Part shown: positions 2,046 to 7,519 of the stretch, piece after piece | Layout: every line of letters starts with the position of its first letter | Position numbering within the stretch: the first letter of the stretch is position 1 | Origin: Candidatus Wukongarchaeum yapensis | GTDB lineage: Archaea; Asgardarchaeota; Wukongarchaeia; Wukongarchaeales; Wukongarchaeaceae | Assembly (NCBI GenBank): GCA_016840425.1 | Contig: JAEOSI010000083.1 | Coordinates: forward strand, 1-8,615 | Reading direction: 5' to 3' | DNA length: 8,615 bases | The notes under the pieces: generated by a model | Databases searched by the model: none | Told to the model about the DNA's origin: nothing | Seen by the model: the letters and a program-made list of their open reading frames with translations, nothing else | Program-made: the position numbers and the translations under genes

Positions 2046-2121
2046 CATTTTTCCCTCTTATTAATGGGTGTTTTAGTGTTTTTATAGGATTTTTTAATTG
2101 GCATAATTGTTGGTGTTTTTA

Positions 2122-2736
2122 ATGGTTGCAGGAAGTAGTAGCGAGGAAAAAGATTTACAAAACGTTTTTAGGTATTTAGGAGGGTTGCAAGGCGTTGTTG
2201 GAGTTGCTGTTTTAGATCAAAATCAGCAGGAAACCGTTTTAAAGTTGGAAGAAAAAGCGATGGAGAACGTTTTAGGCGGTATGGGAAAAGGAAAAAATGA
2301 AGGTTTAAAAGAAGCCCTCTCAAAAAGCATAGTTTTGGCCATGTTCACAGATATGAAGTTTTACGTTAATTTTCCACCACATATTGATACTATGAAGCTT
2401 ATTTGTAAAGGAGAGGTTGTTGGAGAGACCACGACAGATCCTGTAAAACTTGAAAAATTCAAAAAGGACCCTGACATGATTGTTATCAGCGACTTTTTTG
2501 CCTTAAAAAAAGGGGCTAAGATCAACAAGCAAGCCTTTGAATGTGGAGACGCATATTTTCTGTTTTCCCCCATCCGTGCTGAAATTTTTGCAGAAATACC
2601 TGAAATAACAGACCATGTCTTATCTATTCCCTCGCCTCCAGTATTTGACTTCATAAAGAAAGAATTTGAGAATGAAATTGATTTTTCCGACCCGCAACTT
2701 GCAGTTATGATATTGGGATTAGACCTTAAAACCTAA
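2122..2736 (+). CDS. Hypothetical soluble archaeal protein
   Basis: Long ORF with protein-like composition. ATG 2122 is preferred over the track's TTG 2107 because GGTG (2112-2115) precedes it. Motifs NEGLKEALSK, FPPH, GEVVGE, SIPSPP. No function recognised. Confidence 0.75.
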   Translation: MVAGSSSEEKDLQNVFRYLGGLQGVVGVAVLDQNQQETVLKLEEKAMENVLGGMGKGKNEGLKEALSKSIVLAMFTDMKFYVNFPPHIDTMKLICKGEVVGETTTDPVKLEKFKKDPDMIVISDFFALKKGAKINKQAFECGDAYFLFSPIRAEIFAEIPEITDHVLSIPSPPVFDFIKKEFENEIDFSDPQLAVMILGLDLKT

Positions 2737-2813: not shown

Positions 2814-3377
2814 TTAGAGATAAGTGATTATTAAGGTTATTAGGAGTAGAGTCCCGATCAAGTCTCCTATAGTGGTTACCGTGGGGATCGTGAAGTTGTC
2901 AGGGTCAAGACCGCGGGAATAAGTCATTTTTGCTGCAAAAAGCCCTATAAACATCATAAGAATTGTCGTGACTATTCCTGAAAAAGCCACAATTAAAATG
3001 AAGTTTGAAAAAGTGACATTTATTTCAAAAAAGATTGAAGCCACAGCTATTCCAATAAATGCAAGGAATAAGAATCCTGTGAAAGCTACAAGCACCATGC
3101 TTATCATATTCAAAAAGAGGACTTTGTAAGGCTTAAAATCGTCATCGATTTCACCCACATAGAGGCTAGAGGTTATCCTAGAAGTAAAAACACTCGCTAA
3201 ACTACCAGACATATTTATGAAAGCTGGAAGGATCAGAAGAATAATGGAGTATTTTTCGATTATGTTTCCCGCAAAACCTTCTAAAAAATTACCCGTAACC
3301 ATTGAAAATATGATTATGAAGGTAAGAAAAGGCAAGCTCTCATTAATAATTGCCTGAGCATCATAATATCTTTCCAT
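2814..3377 (-). CDS. mgtE: MgtE/SLC41 integral-membrane Mg2+ transporter domain (second half of split pair)
   Basis: About five hydrophobic segments; PAFINMSGSLASVFTSRITS and DPDNFTIPTVTTIGD match the MgtE Px6GN and PDx4Px6D motifs; AGGAGG ribosome-binding site upstream; no CBS domains. Confidence 0.9.
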   Translation of the reverse strand: MERYYDAQAIINESLPFLTFIIIFSMVTGNFLEGFAGNIIEKYSIILLILPAFINMSGSLASVFTSRITSSLYVGEIDDDFKPYKVLFLNMISMVLVAFTGFLFLAFIGIAVASIFFEINVTFSNFILIVAFSGIVTTILMMFIGLFAAKMTYSRGLDPDNFTIPTVTTIGDLIGTLLLITLIITYL

Positions 3378-3392
3378 CTTCTTAACCTCCTA

Positions 3393-3989
3393 TTAAGGCA
3401 ACCATCCAGAGATGGACAATGTAAACTTGGCTACTATTAGTAAGTATATTATTGTTAGAATGTCCCCCACAACAGATAGAGCAGGTATTGTGACATTATC
3501 GGGATCAAGACCAAGATGGGAGGAGTATGTCGCAATGAAAACCGTAAACCCAACTTGGCTCACCCCAGCCAAAGTTGAAGTTAAAACAGCTATCAAAATA
3601 AATTCTAGTAAACTCATATGTTTAAAGCCGAGCAAAATACTGCTTATAAACGCTAAAACTCCAAGAGAAAAACTCATTAGGAGACCCAAAGATACCGATG
3701 CTTTAACATTCTCTCTCACGTCTTCATTAAACTTGTCTTCCCAGCTTACAATACCCAAATGGATAGCAGAACCTAAACGCTGACCCAAAGCTCCGCTAAT
3801 ATTCCCCCTAGCTTCCATCAACCCTGGAACGATTATGAACAAACCTGGAAGGAGTTCATAAAAATCTTCTATACCTATTAAAAACACTCCTACCCATATC
3901 TCAGCCACAATAGTTACAAGTATTATGGGGGCAGTCTCCTTATAAGTCGTTAACACCAAATCTTTCTCAGACAAGAAAAAAACCCCCAC
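3393..3989 (-). CDS. mgtE: MgtE/SLC41 integral-membrane Mg2+ transporter domain (first half of split pair)
   Basis: PGLMEARGNISGALGQRLGS and DPDNVTIPALSVVGD motifs; about five TM segments. The start could be GTG 3989 or TTG 3974. Confidence 0.9.
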   Translation of the reverse strand: MGVFFLSEKDLVLTTYKETAPIILVTIVAEIWVGVFLIGIEDFYELLPGLFIIVPGLMEARGNISGALGQRLGSAIHLGIVSWEDKFNEDVRENVKASVSLGLLMSFSLGVLAFISSILLGFKHMSLLEFILIAVLTSTLAGVSQVGFTVFIATYSSHLGLDPDNVTIPALSVVGDILTIIYLLIVAKFTLSISGWLP

Positions 3990-4002
3990 AAAATAGATTT
4001 AA

Positions 4003-4329
4003 CTTGTTCGGCGAAAAGTCCCCCTGCGACAGCTGGGGATGAAAACCGAAACACATTTATGTTTTTCACCGTAGTATATCTTTTTATGCCCGACTAGATG
4101 GAAGCATATCTTCTAATAAATGACCAGTCATCACATCATAAGGCTATATCTCCGCCGTGAGCAACTGCCCATTTTTGCAAGAATTCTCCTAAAAAAGGGA
4201 TAGTAGGAACCATGAGAAACCCGCAAGCTTTCGAAAGCCCATAAGTGGACGAAGCATCGCTTTTGGTGACAAAGTGAGAACACTATAGAAAGCTGGAAGC
4301 CCCATCCAATAGGGTGGGAAACATGCCAC
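4003..4329 (+). mobile_element. Internally deleted, non-autonomous IS200/IS605 (IS1341/tnpB-type) element, MITE-like
   Basis: Left-end hairpin CCCCTGC-GACA-GCTGGGG (4021-4038) followed by ATGAA; right-end GGAAGC-CCCATCC-AATA-GGGTGGG hairpin (4301-4318) ending ...CCAC (4329); a tnpB-like mini-ORF lies between them. Boundaries are approximate. Confidence 0.7.
4120..4203 (+). pseudogene. tnpB: tnpB remnant (N-terminus fused to C-terminus by deletion)
   Basis: MTSHHIIRLYLRREQLPIFARILLKKG*: RLYxxxEQ has the spacing of the TnpB N-terminal RLYPxxEQ motif, and ARILLKKG resembles the C-terminal AAxNILxxG motif. Confidence 0.55.
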
Positions 4330-4445
4330 TAACATAAACAAACAAGAAAAAATTATCAAAATAAAAACAAGGTAATCATATAAAAACATTCTAACTTCTA
4401 AAATGAAAAAAAATGCGGGAGAAAAGAAAGAAAAAGTTTTCCTCA

Positions 4446-4482
4446 CTTTAAAGAAAAGAAAAAAGAGGGCGTTAGAGCCCCT
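4446..4482 (-). terminator. Possible terminator downstream of the mtrH-like gene
   Basis: On the minus strand a weak GGGC/GCCC stem (4467-4480) is followed by a long T-rich tract (TTTTTTCTTTTCTTT). Confidence 0.3.
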
Positions 4483-4567
4483 ATAAAAGGCTTTTTTAAT
4501 CTGTTTTTCTGGTCTTTTTGGATTTTATCATTGATATTTTGTGGGGGAGAAGTTTAGCTTACATTTG

Positions 4568-4681
4568 TTTAGCTTGTTCCACGAAATCTGGGAAAAGTAC
4601 AGCTAATGGGTGTTTCTCACATCATCGATTTAGCTTGTTCCACGAAATCTGGGAAAAGTACAGCTAATGGGTGTTTCTCAC
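4568..4681. repeat. Exact 53 bp direct repeat (4568-4620 and 4629-4681) separated by 8 bp
   Basis: tttagcttgttccacgaaatctgggaaaagtacagctaatgggtgtttctcac occurs twice with spacer atcatcga; it overlaps the 3' end of the mtrH-like gene. Confidence 0.98.
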
Positions 4682-5600: not shown

Positions 5601-5799
5601 TTGAGGGTTCACCTCTCGTTAAGAAAGTTTTTATGAAGAATAGTAAACAAGGTTTTTTTTAACTTTCCTTGTTTCTCATTTTTGAGAAGTATACGCCCTT
5701 ATTAAATCTTATCTACTATGAGGAACGAAATATTCAAGTTAAATGAATTAGTAAGTAAAGCTGGGAAGTTTTTGGTTTGTGAAAAAGGAGGATTTTTTG
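5601..5799. promoter_or_regulatory. Divergent promoter region between mtrH-like gene and the dynactin-like pair
   Basis: AT-rich gap between divergent starts, with a ribosome-binding motif on each side (GAGGTGA on -, GGAGGA on +). TATA/BRE positions are uncertain. Confidence 0.4.
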
Positions 5800-6330
5800 A
5801 TGATAATTGAGAACCGAGGGAAAAAGCCTACTGTTTCTAAAACAGCCTTTGTTGATGAAGAAGCGAAAGTTATAGGGAATGTGATCATTGGTGATCATAG
5901 TTATATTGCGCCTGGGGCTGTGATTCGTGGCGACCTTGCCCGGGTGGTTTTAGAAAACTATACCGCAGTGCAAGATGGCACCTTACTATATCCTGCAGAA
6001 CATTTTATGGACGGTTTGATGGAGCATAAAGAGATTTTGATTGGTTCTCATGTTATTATAGGGAAATATTGCATTATTCAAGCCACCTATGTTGGTGATG
6101 CTGTTTTTATAGGATCATCAAGCGTTCTCGACAGGGAATGCCAGATTAGTGATGGAACCGTTGTTGCCGCAGGTACTGTTGTTCCTCCTTGGATGATTGT
6201 TCCTCCCCGCGTCGTTGTTGGCGGTCAACCTGCAAGAGAATATAGACGCTTATCGCCAGGAGACGTGGAAAAACAGAGGGAAAATGCTGAAACTTATTCA
6301 AAATTTGTCGAAAAAGTTTTGAAAAGATGA
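5800..6330 (+). CDS. Left-handed beta-helix protein, gamma-CA-like but lacking the Zn histidines; dynactin p25 (DCTN5)-like
   Basis: Hexapeptide repeats; IRGDLARV, IGSHVII, VVPPWMIVPP and GGQPA motifs; Tyr, Lys and Gln occupy the three gamma-CA His positions. GGAGGA (5787-5792) supports ATG 5800. The fold call is secure; the p25 assignment is less so. Confidence 0.75.
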   Translation: MIIENRGKKPTVSKTAFVDEEAKVIGNVIIGDHSYIAPGAVIRGDLARVVLENYTAVQDGTLLYPAEHFMDGLMEHKEILIGSHVIIGKYCIIQATYVGDAVFIGSSSVLDRECQISDGTVVAAGTVVPPWMIVPPRVVVGGQPAREYRRLSPGDVEKQRENAETYSKFVEKVLKR

Positions 6331-6364
6331 AAAAATTTATTGTTTTTTGGATGGAGCGATTCTA

Positions 6365-7519
6365 ATGCCTTCTGAATATTTATGCAAGGTTTGTGGAAGG
6401 TTTTTTGAGGAGTTTTACGATTACTACTGCTCAGCATGCCAGCATATTATATGTGAGAAATGCACCAACAGTCAGCCTTGGACATGGCCTTGCGTTAAGT
6501 GTGGTTGGGCGGCTAAAACTAGAGCTGAAGCGATAAATAACGATTATGCATGCCCCAACTGTTATGTTTGCCCTTATTGTAAGGCGCCTGTAGACATAGT
6601 ATCTGAGAAAACGTTTGAAGGAGAGCCAAAGTTTGTTTTTAAGTGCGGTTATTGTCTTTGGAATTCAGGCATTGAGACTATAGATTCGAAATGGCATATT
6701 GAAGCTTTATCTGAAGAATGGTTAAGGAAAAAAGCAGAATCAGTAGATTTGCCAAGATTAAGTTTAAGAGAGGTGCCGACATTTCTTTGCTCTCTTTGCT
6801 ATTCAACCCTTGTCTCACCTAAGGGAAGTACTGAAAATTTAATGGCAAAGATTTTTCCCCGCGTAACTTTAAGGCTCTATCATGCTTTAATAATGGGTGT
6901 TGAGGAAGAGGTAGAGATAACTGTTAAAAATACACGTCCAAAAAACGTCAATCTGCGCTTTGATTGGAGAACTGAGGGCATACCTGTAAAAATAGCAAGC
7001 CATACACGTTCCCATGATTTCGATTTTTCGGGTTTTGAAAAAGAAAAAAAACTTAAATTGATTTTAAAACCTGAAGAATATGGAAGTTTTTACATAATAG
7101 GGGAAGTATGGTTTTCTTTTGAAGAATTATCCTTAGGTCAAGCAACTACACATATCAGGCTTGGTCCCATATACGTCGTCCCAAGAATTACTGTTACAAA
7201 AGAGTTACCAGGCTTTATAGAGACTGGAAAGGAGACCATTATGAAGGTGAGAATTACCAATGAAAGTTCAAAAGACGTAACCCGTGTTATCATTGAAGAA
7301 GGAACTTTACCCGAAGATATGCGGGTTTTAGGGGATGATTTCTTCTCAATACCAAGACTGGCCCCGAATGAGACTAAAGAACATTCTTATAAAGTAGTTT
7401 TTGAAAAACCAGGACGATACAAAATCCCCCCATCAAAAATCCGTTTAAAAATCCCCATAATAGATCCTAATCGCTTGATAGAAATAAGAAGTAACTCCCT
7501 AGAACGCTTATTGACATAA
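6365..7519 (+). CDS. Dynactin p62 (DCTN4)-like multi-zinc-finger protein with beta-sandwich and an extra C-terminal Ig-like domain
   Basis: 16 Cys in 8 CxxC pairs with p62 spacing (CxxC-x4-CxxC-x9-CxxC...AEA...CxNCxxCPxC...CGYCxWxS...CxxCxxxLxxP...PxVx...TxxN...LGP). GGAG at 6353-6356 supports ATG 6365. Confidence 0.85.
   Translation: MPSEYLCKVCGRFFEEFYDYYCSACQHIICEKCTNSQPWTWPCVKCGWAAKTRAEAINNDYACPNCYVCPYCKAPVDIVSEKTFEGEPKFVFKCGYCLWNSGIETIDSKWHIEALSEEWLRKKAESVDLPRLSLREVPTFLCSLCYSTLVSPKGSTENLMAKIFPRVTLRLYHALIMGVEEEVEITVKNTRPKNVNLRFDWRTEGIPVKIASHTRSHDFDFSGFEKEKKLKLILKPEEYGSFYIIGEVWFSFEELSLGQATTHIRLGPIYVVPRITVTKELPGFIETGKETIMKVRITNESSKDVTRVIIEEGTLPEDMRVLGDDFFSIPRLAPNETKEHSYKVVFEKPGRYKIPPSKIRLKIPIIDPNRLIEIRSNSLERLLT

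Follow-up and report, generated by a model that had tools for sequence, protein, structure and literature searches.

Two subunits of dynactin, p62 (DCTN4) and p25 (DCTN5), have so far been treated as eukaryote-only proteins. In the dynactin structure p25 is held mainly by p62, through 2746 A2 of buried surface, while the p62 saddle wraps Arp11 and the surfaces of p62 and p25 provide adaptor-binding sites (Lau et al. 2021, PMC8047447). The published description of the DCTN4 family gives eight CxxC motifs, a two-residue spacer between the fifth and sixth only, and an eighth motif far downstream, in a survey of dynactin evolution that never mentions "prokaryote" or "archaea" (Hammesfahr & Kollmar 2012, PMC3583065). 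Full-text literature searches, with most subscription journals and supplements outside their coverage, turned up no publication that connects archaea with DCTN4 or any dynactin subunit. Here we describe a two-gene locus from the Asgard archaeon Candidatus Wukongarchaeum yapensis. The window analyzed is the entire 8,615-base contig JAEOSI010000083.1, which belongs to a 2.16 Mb metagenome-assembled genome (MAG) that is 92% complete. At a probability of roughly 0.6, the explanation that best fits the locus as a whole is that the gene pair is a candidate operon for an archaeal p62-p25-like module; if so, part of the dynein-cargo machinery may be older than eukaryotes.

An earlier note, made from the sequence of the window, had described two co-oriented genes 34 nucleotides (nt) apart, each preceded by its own ribosome-binding site, one for a left-handed beta-helix (LbH) protein lacking the usual histidines and the other for a zinc protein with a p62-like pattern. 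The coordinates of the open reading frames (ORFs) and the sequences of both products bear out this description, with the following features.

5786..5791, + strand: Shine-Dalgarno-like AGGAGG, read from the sequence, 8 nt 5' of the LbH ATG
5800..6330, + strand: LbH gene, 176 amino acids (ATG at 5800, TGA at 6328-6330)
6331..6364, + strand: T-rich intergenic spacer of 34 nt, containing GGAG at 6353-6356, 8 nt before the next ATG
6365..7519, + strand: gene for the p62-like zinc protein, 384 amino acids with 16 Cys (ATG at 6365, stop at 7517-7519)
6365..6799, + strand: zinc "saddle" region, residues 1-145, with eight CxxC motifs (assigned from invariant Cys, DCTN4 spacing, hhalign, the PDB profile match and Cys-fixed shuffles)
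6800..7183, + strand: beta-sandwich completing the p62 core, residues 146-273 (assigned from VIA-align, DCTN4 matches in AFDB and hhalign)
7184..7519, + strand: extra immunoglobulin (Ig)-like domain, TRAP-beta/DUF11-like, residues 274-384 plus the stop codon (assigned from VIA-align to TRAP-beta)

An alternative, earlier TTG start for the zinc protein lies at 6347; we placed the start at 6365 because the orthologues all begin with a conserved "MP.EY.C" N-terminus.

The zinc protein is truly homologous to DCTN4 (PF05502; 6ZNL chain Y, 9B7J chain K), though distantly so, at approximately 17% identity overall. Its CxxC cysteines occupy residues 7/10, 22/25, 30/33, 43/46, 63/66, 69/72, 94/97 and 142/145, and exactly eight such motifs are invariant throughout the archaeal orthologues, with a two-residue spacer between the fifth and sixth motifs only and the eighth far downstream, a layout that fits the published family description (PMC3583065). 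From one motif start to the next, the distances are 15, 8, 13, 19-20, the doublet (3, 3) and 19-25 in archaea, compared with 8, 13, 18-23, the doublet (3, 3) and 22-30 in eukaryotic DCTN4; several absolute positions are identical between the two groups, and the DCTN4 spacing is followed up to the seventh motif. From there to the eighth, the distance is 43-48 residues in archaea (48 in the window protein) versus 113-218 in eukaryotes. In dynactin p62 this segment, a long helix and a disordered loop, contacts beta-actin and provides adaptor site 1 (PMC8047447). Both elements are absent from the archaeal protein, and its AlphaFold2 (AF2) model, with a predicted local distance difference test (pLDDT) score of 86.3, has one short helix at 117-126 instead. 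Four Cys4 sites formed from the eight CxxC motifs in DCTN4 order and followed by a beta-sandwich are thus the architecture common to the archaeal protein and DCTN4.

The earlier note had made its reading depend on a significant match to DCTN4, and such matches were obtained with both sequence profiles and structures. Run exhaustively against 1.84 billion representative proteins, phmmer (E <= 1e-3) returned 24 matches, comprising six archaeal orthologues followed mostly by proteins aligned to residues 4-110. When 15 non-archaeal matches, from fungi, ciliates, Amoebozoa and others (Phalansterium, Blastocystis, Kuraishia, Tetrahymena, Lithocolla, Cryoendolithus), were scanned with Pfam, Dynactin_p62 was the best family for every one, and 12 scored above its cut-off, reaching up to 620 bits. 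In NCBI the orthologues are listed under Candidatus Odinarchaeum yellowstonii LCB_4, Candidatus Odinarchaeia archaeon and Promethearchaeota archaeon, and all are annotated as "hypothetical protein". A word-indexed protein search with the zinc protein found one relative only, so that the exhaustive search was needed, and single-sequence phmmer against PDB gave insignificant zinc-finger matches only, so that a profile was needed. With a profile of 12 archaeal sequences, DCTN4 ranked first among all PDB sequences at E 1.7e-7, followed by the PolD zinc finger at E 3e-3. Aligned by hhalign with ten eukaryotic DCTN4 sequences, the archaeal profile reached a probability of 99.1% with E 1e-18 across 98 columns, and the C-terminal part alone, from the eighth CxxC into the first sandwich strands, gave E 2e-4 over 75 columns. 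In the reverse direction, a six-frame search of the whole genome with the eukaryotic DCTN4 profile found the zinc protein gene only, at E 1e-20, a score whose size is partly circular because the eukaryotic sequences were chosen by means of the window protein; the same profile found the gene in three genomes and missed it in one Odinarchaeon genome.

A chance arrangement of cysteines was ruled out as the source of the likeness to DCTN4. For each of 13 eukaryotic sequences, we produced 200 shuffles of the zinc region in which the non-Cys residues changed places and every Cys stayed fixed, and scored the results against the archaeal profile. The shuffles averaged 5-11 bits and reached 35 at most, the real DCTN4 sequences scored 40-62 bits (z 5.6-9.4), and in none of the 13 cases did any of the 200 shuffles reach the real score. 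Approximately 40 bits are therefore contributed by the residues other than Cys. Non-Cys positions around the motifs are conserved between the archaeal protein and DCTN4.

Structural comparison gave the same first-ranked family. The best Foldseek match of the AF2 model in PDB was human DCTN4 (9b7j_K, E 2e-13), three further dynactin entries fell within the top nine, and the best unrelated matches, tandem beta-sandwich proteins, were found at E 2e-9. VIA-align superposed residues 1-273 of the model on residues 6-460 of 9b7j_K (Z 16.0, 254 residues aligned, root-mean-square deviation (rmsd) 8.9 A), and in the Swiss-Prot AFDB search the top five matches were all DCTN4, from five mammals, with residues 3-273 of the query aligned to 10-460. 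Residues 274-384 have no counterpart in the DCTN4 alignment; they match TRAP-beta instead (8rjc_6, VIA-align Z 15.4, rmsd 1.9), although the score of the zinc protein on Pfam TRAP_beta, 17.8 bits, falls short of the cut-off.

The LbH protein is p25-like and, among the sequences sampled, the closest prokaryotic relative of DCTN5 (PF21711), with which it shares 26-35% identity, the left-handed beta-helix and a C-terminal helix (residues 153-175). Y64, K89 and Q94 replace the three zinc-ligand His residues of the gamma-carbonic anhydrases (gamma-CA), and Y/K/Q occur at these positions in all 11 operon-linked LbH proteins, compared with His in 111, 111 and 104 of 128 aligned family rows. In DCTN5 the same positions carry R, then K/Q/N, then Q/S, so that the archaeal residues at the second and third positions are those of some DCTN5 sequences. 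Judged by these replacements, the gamma-CA metal site is lost in the LbH protein. An insertion of 8-9 residues around residues 65-78 has approximately the same length and site in DCTN5, while the His-bearing gamma-CA-like rows that we inspected are without it. The Pfam DCTN5 model passed its cut-off of 40 with 57 bits for the window protein and 56-66 bits for the operon-linked set with its Odinarchaeia partners; the nearest gamma-CA-like proteins scored 21-35 bits and true DCTN5 136-178 bits, and of 14 control genomes, one also gave a match above the cut-off. In an unrooted maximum-likelihood tree of 127 sequences (LG+C20+F+G4; 11 archaeal, 5 DCTN5 and 111 others), the archaeal proteins and true DCTN5 formed sister groups in a clade separate from all others, with a Shimodaira-Hasegawa-like approximate likelihood ratio (SH-aLRT) support of 98.7, which remained at 95.7 after removal of the insertion and His columns. 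This tree came from a quick search without bootstraps, on sequences that had been chosen for their resemblance to the query, DCTN6 not among them.

The two genes stay together wherever the zinc protein is found. Among 400 Asgard genomes, full-length orthologues of the zinc protein occur in three families only: the pair is adjacent in all seven genomes of the class of Odinarchaeum (Odinarchaeia) and in two of the three from the small class to which the window belongs; the remaining one, which is 91% complete, gave no match. One further MAG in NCBI has the same arrangement. At every locus with flanking sequence, the LbH gene lies directly upstream of the p62-like gene, at a distance of 3-34 nt or overlapping it (only 3-10 nt in Odinarchaeia), and the sole genome in which the zinc protein lacks an adjacent partner is cut at a contig end. 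The order LbH then p62-like is thus kept in two Asgard classes at approximately 30% identity, and the pair is conserved in relatives, on which the earlier note had also staked its reading. That note had named a eukaryotic or chimeric contig as another way to fail; the contig proved to be archaeal, with an MtrH-family methyltransferase gene on the opposite strand, two MgtE-domain genes and a GNAT acetyltransferase gene as neighbours, and the same pair is found in the closed 1.4 Mb genome of an Odinarchaeon. The stretch carrying both genes is present in 20 public DNA runs from approximately 12 studies (marine sediment, marsh, mangrove), so the pair is not an artefact of one assembly; no RNA run was listed among those carrying it. 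A sediment metagenome from a sulfate-methane transition zone is the source of close relatives of the contig. Homology of both proteins together with their linkage therefore supports the reading of an archaeal p62-like plus p25-like pair.

Several results pull in the other direction. On Pfam Dynactin_p62 the zinc protein scored 19.3 bits (E 5.6e-4, residues 26-107 only), below the 25.3 cut-off, and its orthologues 19.6 bits, 24.0 bits or nothing, and the model also matched weakly in 3 of 14 control genomes; we therefore class the protein as a distant homologue and not as a Pfam member. The superposition on DCTN4 is loose, with an rmsd of approximately 9 A and a template modelling (TM) score of approximately 0.4, so that the orientation of the domains differs from that of DCTN4, and Ig-like tandem proteins reach Z 11-15 on the sandwich parts alone; the structural comparison therefore supports homology to DCTN4 and does not prove it. 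For the LbH protein, a PDB search ranked the gamma-CA 1V3W (E 1e-26) ahead of DCTN5 (7e-15) and DCTN6 (1e-5), comparison of folds with its AF2 model (pLDDT 78) failed to separate p25 (Z 20.9) from gamma-CA (Z 21.6), and both the archaeal and the DCTN5 groups have long branches in the tree. The prediction of the complex, described below, is weak. Finally, the pair was not found in the remaining genomes of the 400 searched, an absence from other Asgard archaea that requires either many losses or a transfer.

If the p62-p25-like reading is right, the LbH protein would probably dock on the zinc saddle and beta-sandwich much as p25 does on p62. The earlier note had listed a predicted interaction of the two proteins as a check, and this check was passed, though weakly: the pair scored 0.32 (runs 0.01, 0.32 and 0.37) against 0.01 for the best control, with runs agreeing in at least 85% of contacts and a partner pLDDT of at least 87. 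Of the solved complexes, 58 of 80 reach the mark applied, as do 2 of 110 mismatched pairs; passing scores of at most 0.60 include only 7 of the 80 solved complexes and both of the passing mismatches. Since the p62-p25 complex has already been solved, the pass may come from memorization of it by the predictor.

What the complex would hold is a matter on which we are far more tentative. The saddle, which in dynactin wraps Arp11, is the best-conserved part of the zinc protein, and with it the module might hold on to a protein of the actin fold. The simplest target would be the pointed end of an Asgard actin filament, on which the module would serve as a cap or adaptor platform; we regard such a putative grip, drawn by analogy with dynactin, as possible but doubtful. 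We know of no pointed-end capper for Asgard actin, and no search aimed at one was made. In Odinarchaeia, a search with the permuted actin described in the next paragraph as query gave two or three match pieces, as fits a single ordinary actin gene, and this ordinary actin would therefore be the simplest candidate partner of the saddle.

The genome of the window also encodes two circularly permuted actins, in which approximately residues 69-408 of actin come first and residues 5-69 follow.

Contig C97, L042:1-1713, minus strand: circularly permuted actin
Contig C20, L043:172-2433, minus strand: circularly permuted actin

Both have long C-terminal extensions, and the longer protein, of 753 amino acids, ends in a putative membrane-spanning hydrophobic stretch. 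Among the 400 Asgard genomes, full-length matches to them were confined to the window's own genus, and Odinarchaeia and family f28 have ordinary actin only; being genus-specific, the permuted actins were ruled out as a conserved partner of the pair.

The alternative that survives best, although we consider it unlikely, accepts a homologous p62/p25 complex and separates it from actin: the pair would be a general docking platform, for example for Roadblock/small-GTPase signalling or membrane cargo, and the link to actin-related proteins would be eukaryotic only. The adaptor-binding role of the p62 and p25 surfaces in dynactin (PMC8047447) suits this idea, as do the lack of the helix-loop that touches beta-actin and the presence of the extra Ig-like domain in the archaeal protein. 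Also in its favour, the pair is directly preceded in the genus Odinarchaeum by two co-oriented Roadblock/LC7 genes, and a HAD hydrolase (phosphatase) gene, found downstream in Odinarchaeia only, has a 4-nt overlap with the 3' end of the p62-like gene in that genus.

L008:3129-3928 and L008:695-1387, minus strand: Roadblock/LC7 and HAD flanks, with the same layout in L009-L011

These neighbours are not conserved in the window or in family f28, however, nor are any others besides the pair itself, and the conservation of the saddle, the Arp11-wrapping part in dynactin, argues against a platform without an actin-fold partner.

A second alternative, which we rate as improbable, assigns the LbH protein to the gamma-CA/PaaY/CaiE enzymes and sees in the zinc protein an unrelated accessory factor or regulator, with any likeness to dynactin restricted to single domains. 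The LbH protein does share fold, length and 31-38% identity with gamma-CA-like proteins (CamH/YrdA/PaaY/CaiE; 1V3W, 6SC4), its best PDB matches are gamma-CA-like, and the NCBIfam gamma-CA, PaaY and CaiE models give its highest raw scores (70-91 bits). Yet every NCBIfam score is far below its cut-off (90.7 bits for the top gamma-CA model against 250), all three metal ligands are replaced throughout the operon-linked set, and the DCTN5-type insertion and the clade with DCTN5 oppose this assignment. The protein differs from this family also in being always paired with a p62-like gene, whose homology to DCTN4 was established independently of the LbH protein.

The least probable alternative, a transfer of the genes from an early eukaryote into an Odin-related lineage that would deprive the pair of any bearing on pre-eukaryotic origins, draws on the patchy distribution (9 of 400 Asgard genomes, in two classes only) but would require two genes that are unlinked in eukaryotes to arrive together as a tight operon, an LbH protein less derived than DCTN5 (branch of 0.29 versus 1.92 from the shared node) and still strongly gamma-CA-like, a p62 in which motifs 7 and 8 are not separated by the insertion found throughout eukaryotes, and one LbH protein in place of the p25/p27 pair.

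Returning to the p62-p25-like module, the short LbH branch, the strong likeness to gamma-CA, which exceeds that of DCTN5, the lack of the helix-loop insertion and the single LbH gene, with no p27 (DCTN6) paralogue adjoining, suggest, on sequence comparison, that the archaeal forms are less derived. The module may thus predate eukaryotes, as read from trees that are unrooted and a distribution that is patchy. Under this scheme, eukaryotes would have inherited the module and extended it later with p27 (a duplicate of the LbH protein), the helix-loop insertion, Arp11/Arp1 and dynein. That it bound the pointed ends of Asgard actin filaments, capping them or serving as a cargo platform, before Arp1, Arp11, p27, dynein and microtubule transport existed, and was later recruited into dynactin, is a speculative extension that we put forward with considerable reserve. 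With an intron-free, two-gene archaeal version, the eukaryotic signature proteins known from Asgard archaea would gain a new pair; being operon-encoded in an organism without dynein, this version would offer a minimal system for asking what the pointed-end complex did before dynein. The origin of p25 and p27 by duplication of a catalytically dead gamma-CA-like protein becomes directly testable, and the actin link, if true, would matter for archaeal cytoskeleton biology too.

Two other groups of Asgard proteins came up as candidate orthologues of the zinc protein and were rejected for their different architecture and lack of an LbH neighbour. The first comprises zinc-ribbon proteins of approximately 500 amino acids (family f30; L013:1204-2688, L016 and L029), which carry a zinc ribbon at either end along with TRAP-beta/NEW3-like beta-sandwich domains, are without the eight-CxxC layout, and align weakly (22% identity) along the length of the p62-like protein. 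The second consists of proteins of approximately 800 amino acids (families f21 and f22; for example L048:1594-3996 on the + strand, also L038 and L039), in which an N-terminal zinc module related to that of the p62-like protein (profile E 1e-6 to 1e-11 per genome) is followed by a series of winged-helix/PCI domains, with weak E3_UFM1_ligase and DDRGK matches; no LbH neighbour was present in the three loci read.

Elsewhere in the window, Rfam and tRNA scans returned no match, including in the interval of approximately 630 nt between an MgtE gene and the MtrH-like gene (3990-4616), which holds short ORFs only and has a strong A-over-T skew. A 209-amino-acid ORF at 2107-2736 (+ strand) is without a Pfam or NCBIfam match. 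At 1-1170 on the minus strand, a 390-amino-acid ORF truncated by the contig end encodes a putative membrane protein, as judged by its hydrophobic stretches, and shows a weak double-zinc-ribbon match. The adjacent genes at 2814-3377 and 3393-3989, both on the minus strand, each encode one MgtE transmembrane domain (187 and 198 amino acids), so that a divalent-cation transporter appears to be divided between two chains.

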